In this document: positions 28,943 to 41,001 of the stretch, in pieces
Layout of the letters: each line of letters starts with the position of its first letter
How positions within the stretch are numbered: the first letter of the stretch is position 1
Assembly: GCA_963793265.1 (NCBI GenBank)
Contig: CAWBZI010000005.1
Coordinates: 352,001-416,000, forward strand
Length of the DNA: 64,000 nt
Direction of reading: 5' to 3'
Origin: an uncultured cyanobacterium
Lineage (GTDB): Bacteria; Cyanobacteriota; Cyanobacteriia; Phormidesmidales; Phormidesmidaceae
Program-made: the position numbers and the translations under genes
The notes under the pieces: generated by a model
Database searches by the model: none
Told to the model about the DNA's origin: nothing
Seen by the model: only the letters and a program-made list of their open reading frames with translations

Positions 28943-30079
28943 CTAGCTCCGAATCTGTACTGGCATGACTAAATACGTCATCTTAGTACCGCCTAACGGC
29001 GTTAGTACAGAAGGACTTGTCGCCGTATTGCACTGAATTTGAATCTCAGAAGTGGGCAATGCTTTGAGCCCTTCTAGCAAATAGCGCACGTTAAAAGCAA
29101 TATCCAAATCTTCGCCTGTGATTTGAGCAGGCATTGTCTCAAGCCCGCTACCCACCTCTTGCGCCTCTACAGATAGCGCTAGCGACTGGGTTTCGTTAGC
29201 CACGGAGAGCTTGACAATGTTATTGCGCTGGTCGGCCATCACAGCAATCCGCTCTAGCGAAGACACAAGCTGCTTGCGATCAACCGTAAGCTGTCGCTCG
29301 AACTGCTTGGGAATAAGCTGTCGGTAGTTGGGATATTGACCTTCTAACAGCCTTGTGGTGATGCGCTGCTGGCCCAAATCAAAGACGACTTGGGTTGAGT
29401 CGAGCTGAAAGGCGACTGGCTCGTTGCTAGGGTAGATTTGCAGAATTCGCTCCAGCTCGCGGAGAGCTTTGCCTGGAATCGTCACGTCCATTTTGAGCGT
29501 AGAAGCAGCGCCTCCGGCTTCATCAACCGTTTGCACTACTGCCAATCTATGACCGTCTGTCGCCGCAAATTCTAAGCTCTCATCATCAGCCGTTAGATGA
29601 ACGCCTGTTAGCACCTGCTTAGTTTCATCAGAGCTAGTAGCAAATAAAGCGCCCCGTAGCCCTTCAATCAATGCGTCGGCAGACACTTTAATCGGCTCAC
29701 TCGTTTCTACCTCAGGGAGCTTGGGATAGTCTTCGGCGCTCAGGCCCCGCACCTGATAGCGACCGGCTGAGCAAGAGAGCGTGACTACTGGCTCATCATC
29801 GTCTTCGCTAATATCGAGTTCTTCGTTGGGCAATCGGGAGACGATATCGCCTAAAAGCTTGGCTGGCAGTGTCAGCGATCCACTTTGGTGAACCTGCGCG
29901 GTAAACGTGGTTTGAATGCCCAGGGTTTCGTCAAATCCAGTTAGGGTTACTTGCTGCGTATCTGTGCTGGCGCTGACTAACACGTTGCCTAAAACCGGCT
30001 TGCTGGGCCTAGAAGGGACTGCCCGGCTCACTAGCGAAAACTGGGTGCTAAATTCGGCCTGCGGGCAGCTAAATTTCAT
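28943..30079 (-). CDS. dnaN: DNA polymerase III beta sliding clamp
   Basis: AATDGHRLA, LLEGQYPNY, IAFNVRYL and YLVMPVQIR motifs; next to dnaA. Confidence 0.98.
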   Translation of the reverse strand: MKFSCPQAEFSTQFSLVSRAVPSRPSKPVLGNVLVSASTDTQQVTLTGFDETLGIQTTFTAQVHQSGSLTLPAKLLGDIVSRLPNEELDISEDDDEPVVTLSCSAGRYQVRGLSAEDYPKLPEVETSEPIKVSADALIEGLRGALFATSSDETKQVLTGVHLTADDESLEFAATDGHRLAVVQTVDEAGGAASTLKMDVTIPGKALRELERILQIYPSNEPVAFQLDSTQVVFDLGQQRITTRLLEGQYPNYRQLIPKQFERQLTVDRKQLVSSLERIAVMADQRNNIVKLSVANETQSLALSVEAQEVGSGLETMPAQITGEDLDIAFNVRYLLEGLKALPTSEIQIQCNTATSPSVLTPLGGTKMTYLVMPVQIRS

Positions 30080-30227: not shown

Positions 30228-30476
30228 TTTCTTTTTAAAAAGCTTATTTAAAAGTAGTAGTAGTAGAGCCTGTGGAAAATGTGGAAAACTCGACTTTTTT
30301 CCTAATATATGGTCATCCTAGCCATTTCTAGACTGTGGAAAACCTGTGGAAAAAGTCCCGAGTTTTCCACAGGCTCAGAAATGTGGAAAAAGTTTTCCAC
30401 AAGGGCCCCAAAGTTTTCCACAATTTCTCCACAAAAGGGAAGGGGGTTTTCCACAGAAAAAGGGGGTTTTTCCACA
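30228..30476. promoter_or_regulatory. oriC: Chromosomal replication origin oriC
   Basis: Ten perfect cyanobacterial DnaA boxes TTTTCCACA/TGTGGAAAA (30271, 30280, 30334, 30345, 30363, 30382, 30393, 30414, 30447, 30468), one 1-mismatch box (30425), (TAG)4 trios at 30255-30266 and an adjacent AT-rich tract, all between dnaA and dnaN. Confidence 0.93.
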
Positions 30477-30646: not shown

Positions 30647-32071
30647 CTAATGCCCAGAGACAACCATAATGTGATCGCTCACTTCCTGAATCTTCTGAGC
30701 CAGGTTTGGATCTCGCTTGACGATTTGCGTAATCTTGTCGCAGCTATACATCACCGTCGTATGGTCTTTGCCGCCAAACTGATCGCCTACCTTCGGCAAA
30801 CTCAGGTCTGTATGCTTTCGCATGAGATACATGCCCACCTGCCGCGCCAGGCTGATCTCACGGCGACGAGAGTGGCTTTTAAGATCGTCAATAGAAATTT
30901 TGAACGCGTCAGAGACGGCTTTGATGACTGTTTTGGGCGAGCACTCTAGCCGCTCTGCGGGTGGGTCAAGTACGGGGATCAGATTTTCTACGGTCATCGG
31001 TAAGCCTGCAATTGAGGTGTAGGCGATAGAGCGGGTGAGGGCTCCTTCTAGCTCACGGATGTTAGAGGTGTAGGAGGAGGCGATGTATTCAGTCACGTCT
31101 CTAGAGAGCGTCACCTGCTCGTACTCTGCCTTTTTTTGCAAAATGGCGATGCGGGTTTCAAAGTCGGGCGCTTGAATGTCAGCGATGAGGCCCATTGAAA
31201 ATCGGGAGCAGAGCCGGTCTTGCAGGCGGGGAATTTTATTCGGCGGTCGATCGGAGGCGAGTACGATTTGCTTACCTGCCTGGTGGAGCGAGTTAAACGT
31301 GTGGAAAAACTCTTCTTGGGTGTATTCTTTGCCCTCAATGAACTGGATATCGTCTACTAAGATCACATCGACTTCGCGATACTGCTCTCTAAAGCGCTGC
31401 ATGGAGTCGCGGCGGATAGAGGCAATCAGGTCATTGGTAAAAGTTTCGGTGGAGACATAGGCCACTCGTGCGTTTTTGTCGCTTTCCATGCGGTATTGGC
31501 CGATGGCCTGCATGAGGTGGGTTTTGCCTAAGCCGACGCCGCCGCATAGAAATAGCGGGTTGAATTCTTGGCCGGGCGATTCGGCTACGGCTAGCGCTGC
31601 TGCGTGGGCCATACGGTTGTTTGCGCCGACGACAAAGCGCGAGAAGACGGCCTTGGGGTTGAGATCGGATGAGTCGATACTGCTGTGGCTCGTTTGGCCT
31701 GAGCTGGTGGCGATCGCATCCGTTGCCGGGGCTGTGGGTGCTAAGGATAGAGTAGGACTGCCGTCGCTGGGCCGTCCTTCACTGACCCGTCCTTCGGGTG
31801 CCATCTCAGCCTGCATGGTTTCGTTCGTAACAATGACGACGACATTAACGCGATGGCCGAGGACTTCTTCAGCAAGCTCTGAAATATGGCCTAAGTAATG
31901 CTTTTGTAGCCAGTTGCGAGCAAAAGGATTGTCCGTGAGGAGCACAAGCTCTTGGTCGGATAGTGACTGAACGCGGGTGGGCTTAATCCAGGTTTCAAAG
32001 GTAGGGCCGCTGAGCTGAGCTTCTAACCTTGTTAGGATTTCTTTCCAAAGCTCTTCTTTGATCTGGGCCAC
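30647..32071 (-). CDS. dnaA: Chromosomal replication initiator
   Basis: [31 protein letters not shown] and FGGKDHTTV motifs. Start set at GTG 32071 (GAGG ribosome-binding site upstream). Confidence 0.98.
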
Positions 32072-32762
32072 AGATTTACCTCGACTGTTTGCTTTGACTT
32101 CTAGGATTTTCTTAGGGGGTGTTCCGATTTTCGGTGAGGCAAAAGACGCGCATGGACGAAACGTATCCATGCGCTTTGCAGTGCGTTTGAGGAGGTATAT
32201 AGCTATCAGTAATGACTAGAGAACGGTCTGAAGTACTGAATGAATGAGGCGGCTTGCCTACTCGCTGACTTCTAAGGACTTTCTAGACTACTAGATATAG
32301 CGCCTAAAAAGACGGCAGGAATCTATACGTAGTGTGAGTGATTGGAAGATACAAAGACGTGTGTTTAAATTTGGTTTCTGAATTATAGGGGGTTTATCTT
32401 CTCGGAGGTGCATTTTTCAAGAGACTTTTACATTTTTTGAAAGCGATCGCGCTGAATCAGATTTTTGCGGGTGCGATCGCACTACAAGAGAAAGCGATAC
32501 CTGCAAACCAGCACAACTATCAATTGTTGTTCTGTGTGATCGCATACTTTTTATATGGAAATAGGAGATTTATTTTTAAGCGAGCTGAGGTGCGATCGCA
32601 TATCCCAAAACAAGACTTTCCTCTACCGATCCATTCCATAGAACTGTCACTGCTAAAGTCCACAGTCCTCAACCCCTTCTGTTAGAACAAAAATGATTGA
32701 ATAGTCACCTGCTGCTATTTAATCATTTTTGTTAATATCCATCATTTAGTAGAGAATTCAGC

Positions 32763-34130
32763 ATGAAATTGTCTGACAAGCCCCATCGCTCTCAAAACGT
32801 CGAAACCCCTAGCAGACGTAAAGTACCTTGCTGGCTGCGTCAGTCTATGACTTACGGGCTGATGACAGCGGCGAGTACAGGCACTGTGCTGCTGCTAACC
32901 GGCCAAGAATTCTCTAATAAAGCCCATAATTTTGCCTACGAGCCGCTGCAATACGAGTCCGCTCCTCTCACCACTGGGCAGATCGAAGGCGCTCAGTACG
33001 ATCAGGTGCAGCTTGCCGATGAGGCGACGACCAGAACCGCTGCCGATGAGCCTGTGCTGTTGAGCCAGGCAATCGGCACGGAGCGTCTGATTGGCGGTGC
33101 GAACTTTATTGCTTCGGCGGCGGAGCGAGTCGGCCCAGCGGTGGTGCGAATTAATTCAGCGCGTACGGTGACCGCGCGGCGGCGTCCCAGCATTTTTAAC
33201 GATCCGTTTTTCCGTGAGTTCTTTGGTGAGCAGGGCATTCCTGAGCAGCCTGCACAACGGGTAGAGCGCGGTACAGGGTCGGGCTTTATTTTGGATGCGA
33301 ACGGGACGATTTTGACGAATGCTCACGTGGTAGAAGGCGCTGACGAGGTGACGGTGACCCTCAAGGATGGTCGGGAGCTACGCGGTGAGGTGATGGGTGA
33401 AGATCCGCTGACGGACGTGGCGGTGATTAAGATTGACGCGAGCAATTTGCCGACGGTGAGCATTGGGGATTCGGATGCGCTGCGGCCTGGGGAATGGGCG
33501 ATCGCGATCGGTAATCCTTTGGGCCTAGATAATACGGTGACGGCGGGGATCATCAGTGCGACGGGTCGGACGAGCGCTCAGATTCGTGTGGCTGATAAGC
33601 TCGTGGAGTTTATTCAAACGGATGCGGCGATTAATCCGGGTAACTCGGGCGGGCCGCTTTTGAATGACAGCGGTGAGGTGATTGGCGTGAATACGGCGAT
33701 TATTGGTGGCGGCGCTCAGGGGCTGGGCTTTGCGATTCCGATTAATCAGGCGCGGGCGATCGCAGGTGAGCTGATTGCAAATGGCAAGGTCGAGCACGCC
33801 TACCTGGGCATTCAGATGCGGACGCTGACCTCGGCGCTGAAAGATGAGATTAATGCCGATCCGAATGCGAATATCAACGTGCAGGCTGAAGAGGGTGTTG
33901 TGATACTAGGGATTGCCCAAGGTTCGCCAGCGGCACAGTCGGGATTGCGTCTGGGGGATGTGATTTTGACGATGGATGGTAAGACGATTACGGAGGCGAC
34001 TGAGGTGCAAAACTTGGTGAAAGCAAAAGCGGTGGGCGATGCGATCGCGGTGAGTGTGAATCGAGGCGGGCAGACGGTGCAGCTTTCGGTGCGGCCAGGG
34101 GCGTATCCTGTTGAGACGACGCGACGCTAG
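32763..34130 (+). CDS. HtrA/HhoA/HhoB-family serine protease with PDZ domain
   Basis: TNAHVV, DVAVIK and [15 protein letters not shown] catalytic-triad motifs; C-terminal PDZ domain. Confidence 0.95.
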
Positions 34131-34183
34131 GATCTTGGGGGAGTTGTGCTTGAGTGGTGTGCTTAGCTATTGATACGCTGGAG

Positions 34184-34221
34184 CCCTCATCCCCAGCCCT
34201 TCTCCCCGAGGGAGAAGGGAG
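34184..34221 (+). repeat. Short dispersed REP-like hairpin
   Basis: CCCTCATCCCCAGCCCTTCTCCC-CGA-GGGAGAAGGGAG, a recurrent cyanobacterial repeat architecture. Confidence 0.6.
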
Positions 34222-34236
34222 TTAGAGCCTATTTTT

Positions 34237-35016
34237 ATGGATTTCCCTGTTTACTTTCCTCTCGGGCCTGTGCGCCTCCATCCGCATTTTGTGATGGAGG
34301 CGTTGGCTTATGGGGTGGGTTTGTATGTGAGCTTGTTTCGACGGCTCAGGCAAAAGGATGCGGCCGATCAGATAACCGGATCTCAGCGGACTTCTATTTC
34401 GGTGGGGGCGTTGGTGGGTGCTTTGATTGGCGCGAAGCTACTGGTGACTGTTCAGCATATTGATTTGCTGTGGCAGGACTGGCGGCTATTTGGGCTGATG
34501 GTGCTTCAGGGCAAAACGATTGTGGGGGCTTTGCTGGGCGGCCTGATTAGCGTGGAGGTGACGAAGAAATGGATCGGCGTGCGGCGCTCTACGGGCGATA
34601 GCTTTGTGTATTCGGTGCTGTGGGGAACGGCGATTGGGCGGGTTGGGTGCTTTTTGACGGGGTTGAGCGATCGCACCTACGGCATCGCTACGTCCTTACC
34701 CTGGGGCATTGATTTTGGTGACGGCATTGCGAGGCATCCCACCCAGCTTTATGAGGTAGGTTTTTTAGTGCTGTTATTTTTCGGCTTGCGGTGGTGCGAT
34801 GCCAAACCGCGCCGAGAAGGCGACTTATTTAAGATTTATATGATTGCCTACTTGAGCTTTCGCTTTTTTATAGACTTCATCAAACCTGAATTTCGTCCGC
34901 TCCTTGGCCTCAGTGCTATCCAGATTGCCTGTGTGGGTGGGTTAATCTACTACTTTCCCAGCGCTCTACGACTTGTGAGGCAACTGCGCTCAGATCCTTT
35001 AGAAAAACTGCACTAG
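34237..35016 (+). CDS. Divergent prolipoprotein diacylglyceryl transferase (Lgt)-family protein
   Basis: Multi-pass membrane protein with IGAK, GRVGCFL, LPWG, RHPTQLYE and RFFIDF motifs; lacks the usual (S/A)xHGG His motif. Confidence 0.88.
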   Translation: MDFPVYFPLGPVRLHPHFVMEALAYGVGLYVSLFRRLRQKDAADQITGSQRTSISVGALVGALIGAKLLVTVQHIDLLWQDWRLFGLMVLQGKTIVGALLGGLISVEVTKKWIGVRRSTGDSFVYSVLWGTAIGRVGCFLTGLSDRTYGIATSLPWGIDFGDGIARHPTQLYEVGFLVLLFFGLRWCDAKPRREGDLFKIYMIAYLSFRFFIDFIKPEFRPLLGLSAIQIACVGGLIYYFPSALRLVRQLRSDPLEKLH

Positions 35017-35024
35017 GAACCCTT

Positions 35025-36446
35025 ATGCCTACTCGCCCCTATCTGTTTTATGCCCTGACTAACAGCGTGTGCTCTACGTGCATGAATAAGCTAGAGGCCA
35101 AGATCATCTTTCGCGATGACAAGGTGTATTTGATTAAGCACTGCCTGATTCACGGGCGCGAGGAGGTGCTGATTGCAGATGACGTGGCGTATTACAAAAA
35201 GTGCAACGCCTTTATTAAGCCTGCGGATATGCCGCTGAAGTTTAATACGCCGATTAAGTACGGCTGTCCTTATGACTGCGGTCTGTGTCCCGACCATGAG
35301 CAACATAGCTGCCTGACTTTAATTGAGGTGACGGATCAGTGCAATCTGGCCTGTCCGATTTGCTATGCCGATTCGGGGGCAGAAAATGAGGCGGGCCACG
35401 TGCCGCGAAAGCATCGATCTTTGGCGCAGATTGCCGAGATGATGGATGCGATTGTGGCCAATGAAGGGTCGCCGCAGGTGGTGCAGATTAGCGGTGGCGA
35501 GCCGACGGTGCATCCTGAGTTTTTTGAGATTTTGGATTTGGCGAAAGAAAGGCCGATTCAGCATTTGATGATTAATACAAACGGGGTGCGGATTGCGAAA
35601 GACCGGGCGTTTTGTGAGCGCCTGGCGGAATATATGCCGGGGATTGAGATTTATTTACAGTTCGATAGCTTTGAGGCGGCGGCGCTGAAGGAGCTACGGG
35701 GGGCTGATTTGCGGGAGGTGCGATCGCGCGCGTTATTAAACCTGAATGAGTTCAATATTTCGACTAACCTTGTGGTCACTGTGAAGAAGGGGCTGAACGA
35801 TAGCGAGATTGGTAAGATTCTCGATCATGCTTTAGTGCAGAAGTGCGTGCGAGGGGTGACGTTTCAGCCGATTCAGGCGGCGGGACGGTTGGAAGGGTTT
35901 GAGAAGGGGCGCGATCGCTACACCCTCACCGAAGTTCGCCGCTCCATCCTCGAACAGTCCAACCACTTTCAGCCTGAAGACATCCTGCCGGTACCCTGCC
36001 ATCCTGACTGCCTGGCGATGGCCTACGCGCTCAAGGTAAAAGGACAGGTAATTCCTCTAACTAGCCTGATCTCTCCCGAAGCCTATGTTGAAACTGTTCC
36101 AAACAGCATTTTGTACGAACAAAGCGAAGGCTTAAAGCAAAAGATATTCGATCTCTTTTCTACAAAGCATTCGCCCGCATCGGCAACAACCTCACTCAAG
36201 CAGCTACTTTGTTGTTTACCTTTACTGCCCACGCCCGCAGGCATCACCTACGAAAACGTTTTTCGCATCACAATCGTACAGTTTCTAGACGCTTATAACT
36301 TTGACGTACGCTCGGTTAAGCGTTCCTGCATTCATATCGTGCATCCCGACGGGCGCATTATTCCTTTTGATACGTTCAATATGTTTTACCGCGAAGGAAG
36401 TGCGGGCCATCATTTGGTGACTAATCGAGAGATGGTATCTCAATAG
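35025..36446 (+). CDS. Radical SAM enzyme of the Tes/GDGT-MAS (MJ0619)-like family
   Basis: N-terminal CxxC...KHCLIHG; GCPYDCGLCPDH; CNLACPIC radical SAM motif; SGGEPT; IYLQFD; FQP; C-terminal FLDAYNFD...CIH...DGRIIPF. Confidence 0.88.
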   Translation: MPTRPYLFYALTNSVCSTCMNKLEAKIIFRDDKVYLIKHCLIHGREEVLIADDVAYYKKCNAFIKPADMPLKFNTPIKYGCPYDCGLCPDHEQHSCLTLIEVTDQCNLACPICYADSGAENEAGHVPRKHRSLAQIAEMMDAIVANEGSPQVVQISGGEPTVHPEFFEILDLAKERPIQHLMINTNGVRIAKDRAFCERLAEYMPGIEIYLQFDSFEAAALKELRGADLREVRSRALLNLNEFNISTNLVVTVKKGLNDSEIGKILDHALVQKCVRGVTFQPIQAAGRLEGFEKGRDRYTLTEVRRSILEQSNHFQPEDILPVPCHPDCLAMAYALKVKGQVIPLTSLISPEAYVETVPNSILYEQSEGLKQKIFDLFSTKHSPASATTSLKQLLCCLPLLPTPAGITYENVFRITIVQFLDAYNFDVRSVKRSCIHIVHPDGRIIPFDTFNMFYREGSAGHHLVTNREMVSQ

Positions 36447-36479
36447 GCTGTTGGTTGTGACGCAAATAAGGAGAAAGCT

Positions 36480-36803
36480 ATGGAACGTCGAAATAGAAGA
36501 TGGGAAGTGCTGCAGGGCATATTGTTGCTGTTTGGTTTTCACATCCTAGTATGGGGGCTGGTATGGCTTGTATCATATCTATTCACGTTTCTACTTGGCA
36601 TCTCTTCTTTGGCCCTTGTGTCGTCCGTTTTGTTCGTAGGCATTGGATTGTCACAGCTTTTTTACGTTTTGCCGCTATGCCTGTGGCTACAACGACGTGG
36701 CCGTGCCGAGCTTGCAAAAGGCGTCGTGATTGGCGCTGTAATTACTTTTCTGCTGAACGGTAGTTGTTTCGCATTCGTTCTGTATTCTCTTAATAATTAT
36801 TAG
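36480..36803 (+). CDS. Small 3-TM membrane protein with C-terminal LLNGSCF motif
   Basis: AGGAG ribosome-binding site; three hydrophobic helices; paralogous to 36910-37269. Confidence 0.8.
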   Translation: MERRNRRWEVLQGILLLFGFHILVWGLVWLVSYLFTFLLGISSLALVSSVLFVGIGLSQLFYVLPLCLWLQRRGRAELAKGVVIGAVITFLLNGSCFAFVLYSLNNY

Positions 36804-36909
36804 GGCTTTGTCCTGTCGAGAACTGTCCTACAGCGGGAGCTGAAAGCCCATACAAGCCGGTTTGAGGCTATCTCGGCTTTAATACTAGCGATATCTGTGA
36901 GGTAAGTTT

Positions 36910-37269
36910 ATGAAAGACAACTTCTTCAGCCGTGCTTTAAAGCGCGTTATGATGTTTCCAAAAAATCTCTCAGTTGGAGTAGACAAAGGCATAGGCTGGT
37001 TACTGCTGTGCCATCTATTAGCTGAGGCGCTACTGCTAACGGTAGGTGTGTCGATGTCGCCCATCATGATAGGCAGCTATCCGTCAGATGAGCTGTTATT
37101 GGCCGCTATGCTTTGTATTGGCATCACACAGCTAATCTATGCCATTCCGCTTTGCCTATGGTGTGCCTCTCGCAGACGCTTTGAGACGATGAAGGGCGTT
37201 TTAATCGGTATGCTGATCACGGCTTTTTTGAACGGGACTTGCTTTCTCGGCGTGGTGCTGACTGGATGA
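36910..37269 (+). CDS. Small 3-TM membrane protein with C-terminal FLNGTCF motif
   Basis: GAGG ribosome-binding site; shares IG.(S/T)QL.Y..PLCLW...RR....KGV.IG..IT..LNG(S/T)CF with the preceding gene. Confidence 0.8.
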   Translation: MKDNFFSRALKRVMMFPKNLSVGVDKGIGWLLLCHLLAEALLLTVGVSMSPIMIGSYPSDELLLAAMLCIGITQLIYAIPLCLWCASRRRFETMKGVLIGMLITAFLNGTCFLGVVLTG

Positions 37270-37347
37270 CTGCTTTGTTGCATTCTTTTAATAAGAACCG
37301 ACTTATAGCGCGAACTGCAAATCTGTATAAGCCGGTTCGAGTGGGCT

Positions 37348-37650
37348 TTAATTACACGGTTTGCGTAGCAGGCTGATGGCTTCGCTTTGAGCAGGCGAAA
37401 TGGTCAGCGGTTCTTCAATCGTTAGAACAGGCGTCCATAGGATCGTTTCGGCATAGTGCAGGGTGTGTAGCAAATGAATGGTTTGCTGGATTGCGCTGGG
37501 AGAGCCTAGCAGTATGTGCCGGATATGTTCTTTGGAGGGTGTGCCATCGGCGGTGAGTTGTACGGCAGTTCTCAGGGCCGATGCGTCAGTCTGAAGTAGC
37601 CCTGTGCCTGTGCCTGTAGGCTCAGCGGTCAATAAATATGAGGGTTTCAT
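37348..37650 (-). CDS. Conserved cyanobacterial hypothetical protein (HILLGSP...TIHLLH...YAE...W family)
   Basis: GGAG ribosome-binding site before ATG 37650; the motif is a recurrent small-protein family in filamentous cyanobacteria. Confidence 0.7.
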   Translation of the reverse strand: MKPSYLLTAEPTGTGTGLLQTDASALRTAVQLTADGTPSKEHIRHILLGSPSAIQQTIHLLHTLHYAETILWTPVLTIEEPLTISPAQSEAISLLRKPCN

Positions 37651-37691
37651 GGGTTTCTCCGAGTGGTTGCTTTGATACGGGAACGGTGGAA

Positions 37692-37742
37692 GAAAACCAC
37701 GAAAAAAATAGCCACCCTGAACTTGTAACAAGTCAGAGTGGC
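37692..37742 (-). terminator. Terminator/attenuator hairpin in the leader of 37348-37650
   Basis: Minus strand GCCACTCTGACTTG-TTA-CAAGTTCAGGGTGGC followed by TATTTTTTT, about 40 nt upstream of the ATG. Confidence 0.6.
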
Positions 37743-37762
37743 AAATGGCATATGATATGCCA

Positions 37763-37845
37763 TAAGCCCCTGAACTGGTTTCGACAGTTTTCGGGTGAGC
37801 TGGCGGTGTTGGTTGCACCCAACATCGTCAGTGACTAAATTTTTC
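37763..37845 (+). ncRNA. Candidate two-hairpin small RNA (strand inferred)
   Basis: TATGAT -10-like box at 37751; hairpins CCCTGAACTG...CAGTTTTCGGG and CTGGCGGTGTTGG-TTGCAC-CCAACATCGTCAG; T-run at the end. Confidence 0.4.
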
Positions 37846-38451: not shown

Positions 38452-40349
38452 CTGAGTTCGGCGGGAGGGGCACCGCCAGAGTTAAGCACCCCTAACAATT
38501 TGCCTGTGAGTAATGTCAGCGTGTTTGTTGGTCGCGATGACGACTCGCGGGCGGTGGATGCTTTGCTGATGGAAAATCAGCAGGCTAATATTGCGGCGGC
38601 TGTGGGCATGGGCGGCGTGGGCAAAACGGAGCTGGCTTTGCAGTATGCGCGGTGGCGCGGCGAGGCGTTTGCAGGTGGGGTGTGCTGGCTGCGAGGGATA
38701 GAGCCGATTGCCTCGCAGATTGTGGGTTTTGCGCAGGCTTATTTGAATTTGGATGTGCCGGAGCAGGTGGATAATCCGGTGGCCTGGTGCCTTCAGCGGT
38801 GGCCGAATACGGGAGCCAGAAAAGGGCCGGTGCTGATGGTGGTAGACGACGTGCAGGACTATGGCGCGCTGAAGGCGATGCTGCCGAGTAGCGGGCGGTT
38901 TCGGGTGCTGCTGACGACGCGGCGGGCGATTTTGCCAGTGGGGCAGCGGTTGGCGCTTGCGGTGCTGATGCCGGGGGCGGCGCTGTTGCTGCTGAAAAGC
39001 CTGGTGGGTGCGGCGCGGGTTGAGGCGGAGATAGCAGAGGCAGCGGCGCTGTGCGAGTGGGTGGGGCGGCTGCCGCTGGGCATTGAGCTGGTGGGCTGAT
39101 ATTTGTCGGAGCGGCCTGAGCTGACGGTGGCGAGGTTGTGATACAGCGGCTAGAAGATAAGCGGCTGGCGGCTAGGGCGCTGATGGAAACGCATCCAGAG
39201 ATGACGGCGACGTTGGGCGTGGCGGCGGCGTTTGAGGTGAGCTGGGAGCCGCTGTCGGCAGAGGCAAAGATGCTAGCCGGGCTGTTGGGGCTGTTTGCGG
39301 CTGCGCCTGTGGCGTGGGAATGGGTGCAGCGGGCTTGCGAGCAGGCGGCGGTGCTGGATGAGGAAGCTTTAGAAGATGGGCAGGCGGCGTTGCTGCGGGT
39401 GAATTTGCTGCAAAAGCAAGGGGTGCAGGGTGAATTGCGCTATCAGGTGCATCCGCTGGTGCGGGAATCCTTTGGGATGAAGCGAGCGGATTTGGCAGAG
39501 GCTGAGGCTTTGCAGCGGGGCTTTGCGAAGGCGATGACGGATGTGGCGAAGGCGATACCGCCAGTTGTGACGCTAGATGTACGAGCGTGGGTGGTCGTGG
39601 CTGTGCCGCATTTCGAAGAAGTGACGCAGCGGTGGACAGAGGTTTTGAGCGGCGGTGACAAAACTTGGTGCTGTACGGGACTATCGCGGTTTTATGAAAG
39701 TTTGAGCCAGTGGGACGAGGCGGAGCAGAGCTATAAGAATGCCCTCAAAATTAGTAAAGAGCAGTTAGGCGATCGCCATCCTGACACCGCTAGTAGTCTG
39801 AATAACTTGGCGTTACTGTATCGTTCGCGGGGCCAGTATGCAGCCGCAGAACCGTTGTATGTAGAAGCGCTGGAAATCTGCAAAACAGAGCTGGGCGATC
39901 GCCATCCTGCCACCGCTACGAGTCTGAACAACTTGGCGTTACTGTACGAGTCGCAGGGCCAGTATGCCGCCGCAGAACCGTTGTATGTAGAAGCGCTGGA
40001 AATCTGTAAAACAGAGCTGGGCGATCGCCATTCTGTCACCGCTACAAGTCTGAACAACTTGGCGGGACTGTATCGTTCGCAGGGCCGGTATGCAGCCGCA
40101 GAACCGTTGTATGTAGAAGCGCTGGAAATTAGCAAAACAGAGCTGGGCGATCGCCATCCTGACACCGCTGGAAGTTTGTTCAATTTTGCCGCGCTTTACT
40201 ACCAAACCCAGCGACATCAACAAGCCCTATCTTATATCCAACAGGCCTTAGACATCTACGTTCAAAAGCTAGGTTCCGAGCATCCAAATACACAAGCCGC
40301 CCATAGCTGGCTTCTATCCATTCAACAGGCAATTGATGGGTCTGCGTAG
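38452..40349 (+). pseudogene. NB-ARC + TPR (bacterial NLR) pseudogene
   Basis: PNNLP...FVGR, GMGGVGKTELA, VVDDV, LLTTR and LPLGIEL motifs; in-frame TGA at 39097; 2-bp frameshift near 39138; C-terminal LGDRHPDTA TPR repeats. Confidence 0.88.
39769..40170 (+). repeat. 126-bp near-identical tandem TPR-coding repeats
   Basis: HIP1-containing GCGATCGCCAT recurs at 39769, 39895, 40021 and 40147 (period 126 bp = 42 aa). Confidence 0.92.
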
Positions 40350-40363
40350 CTAACTTGTCATTC

Positions 40364-40714
40364 TTACTTTGAATCTACGATCTCTTTTAATTCTCGAACA
40401 GCTTGTTCTAACCCTGGCAGGTAATTCTCTACGGCATCCCATATCCTTTCCATATCAATGCCTCTTAAATAATCATGAACCAACACGTTCCGAAAACCTG
40501 CGAGTGCTCTCCAATCAACATCTGGCGCACTTGCTTTCAAATCATCAGAGAGTCTTTGAGTCGATTCTGCCATCGTCTGCAATCGCCGTAATACCGCATC
40601 TTGAATCAGTACATCGCTCAAAAAGTCAGACTTACCACCTCTGGTATAGTCACGAATCAGCGCAGCGCATTCTGCAATATACTTTAAATGGACAAGGCTA
40701 TTCCCATCAGTCAT
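40364..40714 (-). CDS. HEPN (DUF86/HepT-like) RNase toxin
   Basis: RNVLVHDY Rx4H-Y motif; ATG 40714 overlaps the MNT stop codon (ATGA). Confidence 0.9.
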   Translation of the reverse strand: MTDGNSLVHLKYIAECAALIRDYTRGGKSDFLSDVLIQDAVLRRLQTMAESTQRLSDDLKASAPDVDWRALAGFRNVLVHDYLRGIDMERIWDAVENYLPGLEQAVRELKEIVDSK

Positions 40715-41001
40715 AGTGGCCGCGCTTCTGCTAAAACCTGCTCTCGAATTAATGGACTGATTCCGTTTTCTGTCAGTATGTCTACCTTTCGCCCCAACAA
40801 ATCCTGCCAATCCATCAGCAGCCCACCCGGAAACCAGGGCGTTGTCTTCTCCCGATCGTAATCAATCAGAAAATCAATATCACTCTCTGAAGTCTCCTCA
40901 CCCCTCACTACTGAGCCAAACACCCGCACATTGGACGCACCATGGCTTGCTGCAATCTGCAAAATCTCGGCTCGTTTTTCGTGCAAGGTGTCTAATAGCA
41001 T
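40711..41001 (-). CDS. Minimal nucleotidyltransferase (MNT/MntA-like) antitoxin
   Basis: VFGSVVRGEE..SDIDFL motif and LLGRKVD. Confidence 0.92.
   Translation of the reverse strand: MLLDTLHEKRAEILQIAASHGASNVRVFGSVVRGEETSESDIDFLIDYDREKTTPWFPGGLLMDWQDLLGRKVDILTENGISPLIREQVLAEARPL

Follow-up and report, generated by a model that had tools for sequence, protein, structure and literature searches.

A conserved cassette of a divergent Lgt paralogue, a Tes-like radical SAM enzyme and cysteine miniproteins in cyanobacteria and other prokaryotes, with a possible role in lipid modification of proteins

The prolipoprotein diacylglyceryl transferase Lgt, described structurally for the E. coli enzyme (PDB 5AZB/5AZC; PF01790), moves diacylglyceryl from phosphatidylglycerol to the Cys of a lipobox and stands in the classical Lgt–LspA–Lnt maturation of lipoproteins. 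Tes, the archaeal tetraether synthase also termed GDGT-MAS (MJ0619; PDB 7TOL/7TOM; NF045702), is a radical SAM enzyme that joins two lipid tails by a C–C bond, yielding membrane-spanning or macrocyclic lipids. Relatives of both are encoded next to each other in a four-gene module at positions 34237–37269 of a 64,000 nt stretch of DNA from an uncultured cyanobacterium of the family Phormidesmidaceae (contig CAWBZI010000005.1); this whole stretch will subsequently be referred to as the window. The module consists of a divergent Lgt paralogue (LgtP), a Tes-like radical SAM enzyme and two small membrane proteins with a conserved cysteine (miniproteins 1 and 2). These four genes are one copy of a conserved, self-contained cassette, the gene order of which recurs across phyla far beyond chance.

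Several described systems lie close to this cassette. Mss of Thermotoga and Thermoanaerobacter is also a radical SAM enzyme that couples lipid tails in bacteria; it is only remotely related to Tes, and the accessible part of the source reports no Lgt partner for it (PMC13159169). The paper on Tes lists 456 bacterial homologues, as well as 20 in Halobacteria that make no glycerol dialkyl glycerol tetraethers (GDGTs), where their function is given as unknown (PMC8941075). Neither Lgt nor lipoproteins are mentioned in the accessible sections of a review from 2026 on radical SAM enzymes that modify lipids (PMC13459092). A full-text literature search, the scope of which excluded supplements and the paper naming the radical SAM protein TrsS (see below), returned no paper joining an Lgt paralogue with a Tes-like radical SAM enzyme. 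The components belong to known families, and their combination is seemingly undescribed in print.

All four genes lie on the + strand. The first (34237..35016) encodes LgtP, a protein of 259 residues that matches PF01790 and is predicted to have the Lgt fold, and the second (35025..36446) encodes the Tes/GDGT-MAS-like enzyme of 473 residues, with Radical_SAM (PF04055) and Zn_ribbon_HMPTM (PF23545) domains and homology to 7tol_A. Miniprotein 1 (36480..36803; 107 residues) consists of three helices in its AlphaFold2 (AF2) model and has a family alignment of 31 sequences, in which its paralogue, miniprotein 2 (36910..37269; 119 residues as called), is also aligned. The intergenic gaps are 8, 33 and 106 bp in the list of open reading frames (ORFs) of the window, as had been claimed in an earlier reading made from the sequence only (referred to here as the sequence-only reading). 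Miniprotein 2 has about 14 additional N-terminal residues compared with the family alignment, so that its true start may be the Met codon at 36949 or 36952, which would enlarge the last gap to approximately 145 bp. The nearest named relatives of LgtP and of the radical SAM enzyme come from Phormidesmis-like cyanobacteria.

Within the phylum, the two enzymes mostly occur together. In an even sample of 401 Cyanobacteriota genomes, searched for the radical SAM gene at E ≤ 1e-20 and for LgtP at E ≤ 1e-15, the former was present in 27 genomes and the latter in 25; both were found in 24 and neither in 373. The overlap therefore comprises 24/25 of the genomes with LgtP and 24/27 of those with the radical SAM gene. 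Of the 24 genomes with both, 20 have the genes side by side (with opposite strands in G038), and in four (G016, G028, G073 and G076) they are unlinked, yet both are retained. The radical SAM gene stands without LgtP in G004 (95% complete), G118 (66% complete) and G133, where its matches are distant only (29–33% identity), and LgtP stands without the radical SAM gene in G242 only. The distribution is patchy, as neither LgtP nor the radical SAM gene occurs in the two further genomes that belong to the same family as the window.

When one genome of each prokaryotic species was scanned with the LgtP alignment (A1), at least 599 stretches matched, of which at least 593 were confirmed, and the neighbourhood counts that follow refer to the best 80 of these loci. 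They span at least 10 bacterial phyla together with archaeal metagenome-assembled genomes (MAGs), so the module is not specific to cyanobacteria. Represented are cyanobacteria, Acidobacteriota, Bacteroidota (Mucilaginibacter, Chitinophagales), Bacillota (Paenibacillus, Fictibacillus, Cohnella, Saccharibacillus), Planctomycetota, Verrucomicrobiota, Omnitrophota, Eisenbacteria, Gammaproteobacteria and a Thermochlorobacter, as well as four archaeal MAGs assigned to Halobacteriales, Thermoplasmatota, Thalassarchaeaceae and Euryarchaeota UBA226. The LgtP-type genes on the archaeal contigs (L111, L135, L136 and L143) score 207–226 bits against the window protein, and the one on L143 is flanked by the archaeal-type families DUF1297/DUF1246, KaiC and DUF7121.

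A close radical SAM homologue lies within the 6 kb flank, nearly always directly downstream, in 71 of the best 80 loci; together with the co-occurrence in cyanobacteria this shows a strongly conserved synteny of Lgt paralogue and Tes-like gene, a check that the sequence-only reading had proposed. Five of the nine remaining loci were tested (L084, L104, L107 and L108 were left out), and all five genomes carry the radical SAM gene elsewhere, in each case followed by a match to the miniprotein profile (four strong, one with E = 1.3e-4). Three natural LGT–radical SAM fusions were found in total (P0121, P0124 and P0248), P0124 and P0248 being LGT, Zn-ribbon and Radical_SAM fusions among the 50%-identity representatives; the remaining one, at locus L126, joins LgtP and the radical SAM enzyme in a single ORF of 753 residues. 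Pairwise identities of the two proteins are correlated over 74 loci (Mantel r = 0.87, reached by 0 of 999 permutations), a value to which kinship by itself would also contribute. In midpoint-rooted FastTree trees, read without branch supports, the sequences of the window's class form one clade for LgtP and one for the radical SAM enzyme, and three groups from other classes of the phylum fall with Bacteroidota, with Planctomycetota/Verrucomicrobiota and near Acidobacteriota in both trees. The recurrence of the same groupings in both trees suggests that the two genes move together as a horizontally mobile cassette. Among 135 ORFs that flank the module at 16 diverse loci, Pfam revealed no further conserved partner, such as a peptidase, an exporter or another lipid enzyme.

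LgtP, the radical SAM enzyme and one or more cysteine miniproteins are therefore inherited and kept together across bacteria and some archaea, and the two enzymes of the cassette act together. Alternatively, nothing would connect the genes: the lgt copy would be redundant, the radical SAM gene next to it unrelated and the two small ORFs spurious. Such a view is in keeping with the public databases, which give the two enzymes only the generic names 'prolipoprotein diacylglyceryl transferase (family protein)' and 'radical SAM protein'. Chance adjacency is, however, refuted by the co-occurrence in the 401 genomes, by adjacency across phyla, by the fusions and by the homologues of the small ORFs, leaving this explanation with next to no probability.

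LgtP shares with Lgt the Pfam family, the seven-helix fold and the donor residues. It scores 94.3 bits against PF01790 (cut-off 24.9) and falls far below every NCBIfam lgt equivalog cut-off (TIGR00544, 55.2 versus 118.9; NF000778, 71.8 versus 334). A separate canonical lgt, for which the sequence-only reading had proposed to check, is present elsewhere in the genome (G000:C1:1305350-1306099; 274 bits compared with 94 for the window copy), and its product retains the H, N and E of the classical motifs. LgtP is thus a spare copy of the family beside the canonical enzyme. The AF2 model of LgtP, with a predicted local distance difference test (pLDDT) value of 86.2, aligns with E. coli Lgt 5azb (E = 7.2e-07, probability 1.00, TMq 0.59), which is its sole fold match in the PDB at E ≤ 0.001. 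In the alignment, the stretch corresponding to the periplasmic head of Lgt is roughly half as long in LgtP.

Active site columns were aligned to E. coli Lgt and tallied in 74 LgtP sequences. The equivalents of R143 (R135), Y235 (Y205) and R239 (R209) are kept in all 74, that of E243 (position 213) is D or E in 72 and that of Y26 (Y25) is kept in 69; the RHPxQLYE stretch of Lgt is also retained. R246 is replaced by Lys in 72 of the 74. In E. coli Lgt, mutations at H103, R143, E151, Y26, R239, E243 and R246 abolish complementation and Y235T leaves partial activity, with R143 as the proposed centre of the donor site and H103GGL as the proposed peptide-binding site (PMC4728403).

The radical SAM enzyme gives 82.1 bits with Radical_SAM and 56.5 bits with Zn_ribbon_HMPTM. 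Its top NCBIfam models are TrsS (NF045646; 315.4 bits, cut-off 490) and Tes (NF045702; 277.4 bits, cut-off 450). TrsS is thus the best-scoring model, yet the score lies well under its cut-off. The Tes model covers residues 12–336 only, and the TrsS alignment runs end to end (query 12–459 against model positions 3–437 of 441). The match to GDGT-MAS (7tol_A) has E = 1.6e-62 over residues 12–325 and 325–457, and the proteins are homologous over their full length. The enzyme had been called tetraether-synthase-like; its homology to Tes stands, and its scores fall short of both the NCBI Tes and the NCBI TrsS cut-off. TrsS was reportedly named in 2025, by Haft and Tolstoy, as a radical SAM (seleno)protein. 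The window protein is not a selenoprotein, as its ORF contains no in-frame stop.

Three of the metal sites of Tes, as described in PMC13459092, have conserved counterparts here. The rubredoxin-like site, formed in Tes by three Cys and a His, corresponds to C16, C19, C40 and H43; the N-terminal cluster (CX3CX2C..H), likewise three Cys and a His, to C81, C85, C88 and H91; and the three Cys of the radical SAM cluster (CX3CX2C) to C106, C110 and C113. In the region of the C-terminal [4Fe-4S] cluster, with three Cys and a Met in Tes, the aligned pattern of Cys differs. The Cys of the Tes 'ISC' stretch aligns with Ile417 (Ile in 73 of 74 relatives), and the clade has Cys of its own in the C396–C397 pair (73/74 each), C325 (73/74) and C435 (72/74). 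The residues H94 and C96 of the enzyme are present in all 74 members of the clade and are without a counterpart in the aligned Tes sequence. The clade further differs from Tes in its occurrence in bacteria, in which the presence of Tes homologues does not follow that of membrane-spanning lipids (PMC13159169).

Seventeen Lgt-linked relatives of the enzyme, taken from all groups, behave like the window protein, with 300–336 bits for TrsS and 259–299 bits for Tes, all under the cut-offs. In a representative library of 1.84 billion proteins, 672 clusters match at E ≤ 1e-30, and their identity declines gradually (63, 48, 48, 45, 44 ... %); none of 30 classified cluster representatives scores above the Tes or TrsS cut-off. 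As the Lgt-linked enzymes and these representatives all lie under both cut-offs, and identity declines without a break, the Lgt-linked clade is by these scores an unnamed branch of a large, mostly uncharacterised superfamily.

Neither miniprotein matches a family in Pfam or NCBIfam. The two are paralogous (BLASTP E = 2e-16; 25 of 43 residues identical in the C-terminal half), with homologues at E values down to 1e-44. Cys96 of miniprotein 1 (codon 36765–36767) stands in LNGSC and is followed by 11 residues, and the equivalent Cys111 of miniprotein 2 (codon 37240–37242) stands in LNGTC and is followed by eight. The family alignment (A2) comprises 31 relatives from cyanobacteria, Bacillota and Acidobacteriota; G13 and C96 are invariant (31/31), as was expected of the C-terminal Cys, and Q59, Y62, P65, G81, I84, A86, T89 and L91 are at least 90% conserved. 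A second Cys, in the sequence 'PLC', is shared by the two window copies. In the family it is not conserved; the position varies among relatives (V, I, T, S, L and others), which rules it out as a second acceptor. The NG[ST]C motif of the sequence-only reading fits the window copies, whereas that of the family is broader, L-[NSD]-[GA]-[GSTA]-C-[FW], and lies 6–17 residues before the C-terminus. Of the 31 sequences, 24 have Leu at −4, 29 have G or A at −2, and 29 have one of G, S, T and A at −1; position −3 is N, S, D or C, and F or W comes directly after the Cys in 24. The canonical lipobox, defined as [LVI][ASTVI][GAS]C (PMC12462473), is matched by none of the 31.

The AF2 model of miniprotein 1 (pLDDT 89.9) contains helices at residues 3–39, 44–72 and 76–105, and a fold search with this model gave no match at E ≤ 0.001 (0 of 16). 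Read with the positive-inside rule, both the N-terminus and the loop leading into helix 3, which are basic, would be cytoplasmic and Cys96 would lie in the outer-leaflet part of helix 3, which is also the depth of the active site of E. coli Lgt (PMC4728403). The segment in which a basic loop is followed by about 11 hydrophobic residues, by small residues and then by the Cys has the look of a lipoprotein signal peptide that has been moved to the C-terminal end. The miniprotein thereby resembles the classical Lgt–LspA–Lnt substrates in layout (basic stretch, hydrophobic helix, small residues, Cys); unlike them, it carries its box on the C-terminal helix of a three-helix protein. The candidate acceptors of LgtP accordingly differ from those of Lgt, which have an N-terminal lipobox, in bearing an internal or C-terminal non-canonical one. 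The classical pathway includes no equivalent of the radical SAM partner. A search of the protein atlas gave only nameless cyanobacterial clusters and one automatic label, 'Lipoprotein family protein', which is not evidence.

Other lineages have unrelated-looking small proteins beside the enzyme pair, and these likewise contain a hydrophobic stretch followed by a small residue and Cys. Those of other classes of Cyanobacteriota and of Bacteroidota end in G[FIV]PSC or IGF[SG][STGA]C. At loci L045, L050 and L055 the Cys proteins have N-terminal signal peptides, as in classical lipoproteins, ending ...GWAC, ...SMAC, ...SEAC or ...TQAC. A motif rule (a hydrophobic 12-mer, then [GAST]C) was matched by 65 of 187 co-oriented small ORFs beside the pair compared with 10 of 329 controls, which were ORFs at a distance of more than 2.5 kb, and at least one match was present in 48 of 82 loci. 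Some cyanobacteria also possess an extra conserved ORF of about 126–134 residues upstream of LgtP (L037:11944-12336, L103:5518-5919 and L109:5300-5677), with ...GLG[RQ]SWAIS.G.IAC about 15–19 residues from its end; the window has no such ORF at this place.

The reading that is preferred here, tentatively and at somewhat less than an even chance, is that LgtP lipidates the Cys of the miniprotein and that the Tes-like enzyme then performs radical chemistry on the lipid tails. LgtP, which keeps the Lgt fold and the donor-binding arginines and tyrosines of E. coli Lgt and has changed acceptor-side residues, would take diacylglyceryl from a phospholipid of the membrane and load it onto the one invariant Cys of the miniprotein encoded beside it. 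The acceptor Cys, about two thirds up the last transmembrane helix and past the basic loop and hydrophobic stretch, would form part of an internal lipoprotein signal peptide with a non-canonical box. The radical SAM enzyme, at the cytoplasmic face and docked to LgtP, would activate C–H bonds of the attached tails. By analogy with Tes, these would most likely become joined by a C–C bond, whether inside the one lipid, between two lipidated miniproteins or with a further lipid of the membrane. In the end, an unusual lipid would sit on a small membrane protein or, if cleavage follows, on a lipopeptide of 6–17 residues. In its specific form, an S-lipidated intramembrane Cys with tails welded together or onto either a second lipidated miniprotein or a lipid in the opposite leaflet, such that a protein-bound macrocyclic or membrane-spanning lipid results, this new kind of protein lipidation is rather doubtful; that the cassette performs a categorically new lipid modification of proteins is likewise somewhat unlikely. 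A complex prediction for LgtP (A1) and the miniprotein (A2) scored 0.00 against a mark of 0.32, which speaks neither for nor against binding.

Release of a lipopeptide may instead be the purpose of the system. The lipidated miniprotein would then be cut before its modified Cys, by LspA or another peptidase, with the three-helix body as the leader of a ribosomally synthesised and post-translationally modified peptide (RiPP), and the released product would be a hydrophobic lipopeptide of 6–17 residues. A conserved body followed by a short, variable tail after the Cys agrees with this, as do the signal-peptide-like layout before the Cys and the presence of one LspA in the genome. The tails are nevertheless the ends of hydrophobic helices, unlike typical cores; the canonical lipobox of the LspA type is absent from the family, and the 16 diverse loci showed no conserved peptidase or exporter beside the cassette. 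Such a pathway is improbable.

Several observations weigh against the preferred reading, that is, lipidation of the miniprotein followed by radical chemistry. The first concern the active site of LgtP. The equivalent of H103 is Val in 70 of the 74 relatives, that of N146 is Cys in all 74 and that of E151 is Leu in 68, with a near-invariant Asp two residues beyond this last position, such that neither the HGGL His nor the signature motif G142RLGNFINGELWG154 with its N146 and E151 is kept. The Cys in place of N146 is the invariant Cys138 of LgtP (codon 34648–34650), predicted to lie one helical turn from the catalytic Arg. The donor side of the enzyme therefore looks preserved and the acceptor side looks rebuilt, and as these essential-site residues are changed LgtP may not carry out classical diacylglyceryl transfer. 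A second set concerns the acceptors. The motif rule was set up after examples had been seen, which weakens it, and under its strict form 34 of the 82 loci have no motif-bearing neighbour; these misses include L085 and L119, which the miniprotein profile does match, and also the archaeal L135, L136 and L143 and several gammaproteobacterial loci, where no candidate was seen. Two broken versions of the module belong here as well. G004 (locus L050) has the radical SAM gene and a 67-residue Cys protein with a signal peptide, LgtP not being found in the genome and being gone from the spot where congeners have it; in G242 (L063), LgtP is followed by a membrane protein of 191 residues and there is no radical SAM match.

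In split modules, moreover, it is the radical SAM gene, not LgtP, that the miniprotein gene accompanies, which also fits a role of the miniprotein as the radical SAM enzyme's own partner. The sequence-only reading had tied the small proteins to the Lgt paralogue; they share its module, and their link to the radical SAM gene is the tighter one. Topology adds a further difficulty, as the miniprotein Cys is predicted near the outer leaflet whereas the radical SAM enzyme must be cytoplasmic. Finally, other members of the superfamily (P0262, P0252, P0271 and P0266) are fused to a SAM-dependent methyltransferase, to a MobA-like NTP-transferase with HD, or to DUF5714. These fusions suggest that the Tes/TrsS-like superfamily has several uncharacterised functions, so that C–C coupling is not the sole conceivable chemistry.

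Much of this would be accommodated if the complex of LgtP and the radical SAM enzyme modified, for instance cross-linked, ordinary membrane phospholipids. LgtP would then be an intramembrane subunit that presents lipids and anchors its partner, the miniproteins would be a scaffold, anchor or regulator, and their Cys would be catalytic or redox active. The natural fusions, which show the two enzymes as one working unit, are in line with such a pathway, together with the loss of H103 and E151, both essential in E. coli Lgt, the many loci, archaeal ones included, that have no motif-bearing small ORF, and the company that the miniprotein keeps with the radical SAM gene when LgtP is unlinked; Tes itself works on free lipids (PMC13459092). 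It leaves aside that the sole invariant feature of the divergent small neighbours is a Cys past a signal-peptide-like helix, the hallmark of an Lgt acceptor. Nor are the hosts (cyanobacteria, Paenibacillus, Mucilaginibacter) known to make lipids that span the membrane. Of 14 acidobacteria that produce iso-diabolic acid, moreover, only 3 had a detected Tes homologue (PMC13159169). Modification of free lipids is regarded as unlikely, yet it is the main rival of the preferred reading.

The tight coupling of the radical SAM and miniprotein genes may also be read as direct modification of the peptide, with the radical SAM enzyme acting on the miniprotein Cys or a neighbouring residue and LgtP serving as a dock or lipid-handling helper. 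Radical SAM enzymes commonly mature peptides. Thioether formation is among the radical SAM reactions listed in PMC13459092. The window enzyme is, however, a full-length Tes homologue rather than a maturase of the SPASM or RiPP-recognition type, the Cys is predicted by the model together with the positive-inside rule to lie far from the cytoplasmic face, and the strict conservation of the donor-binding residues of LgtP would be left unexplained. Direct modification is thus considered highly improbable; both it and lipopeptide release are less likely than lipidation with subsequent radical chemistry or the modification of free lipids.

The genes around the module are unrelated to it, with an HhoA/HtrA protease upstream and ORFs without a Pfam or NCBIfam match downstream. 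Between the HhoA-like gene and LgtP, a perfect 10 bp inverted repeat with a three-base loop (34197–34219) was noted by eye, with a T-rich stretch about 12 bases past it; it may be the terminator of the upstream gene or mark the start of the cassette transcript. The terminator scan did not report this site, and the number of sites in the promoter and terminator scan of 33900–37700 was not above that in shuffled sequences. An Rfam scan of 33800–37800 gave no match at E ≤ 1, and no RNA datasets carrying 34237–37269 were listed, DNA metagenome contigs being the only ones.

Further away, 11 matches to the DnaA-box-like 9-mer (10 exact, one with a single mismatch) are clustered at 30271–30476, between a dnaN-like ORF (28943–30079, − strand) and a dnaA-like ORF (30647–32170, − strand), both named from reading their translations. 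The entire window contains 25 such matches compared with 13.8 expected, and the cluster is probably the chromosomal origin. On the other side of the module, two consecutive ORFs at 38500–40349 (+ strand) resemble, going by motifs in their translations, a split P-loop/TPR protein of the STAND type, and an ORF pair at 40364–41001 (− strand) resembles, on the same footing, a nucleotidyltransferase/HEPN toxin–antitoxin system.

Lgt is usually seen as a single-copy housekeeping enzyme with one job, and the bacterial homologues of Tes have been discussed mainly as candidate makers of the branched tetraethers used as palaeoclimate proxies. Instead, a large clade of them is tied, in hosts ranging from cyanobacteria to marine archaea, to a cysteine miniprotein and to an Lgt paralogue of its own. 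Even if the proposed chemistry fails, both genes currently carry only plain names in the databases and counts of Tes homologues would be unsafe as evidence of tetraether production; the Lgt-family genes on archaeal contigs would also still bear on the statement, in the accessible part of its source, that no archaeal Lgt homologues have been identified (PMC12462473). If the proposed chemistry is true, some archaea would possess an enzyme of the Lgt family, and the cassette would stand for a kind of post-translational lipid modification, and a use of radical C–H activation, that are both new. The same cassette would then explain many of the orphan 'Tes homologues' of bacteria and of archaea that make no GDGTs.

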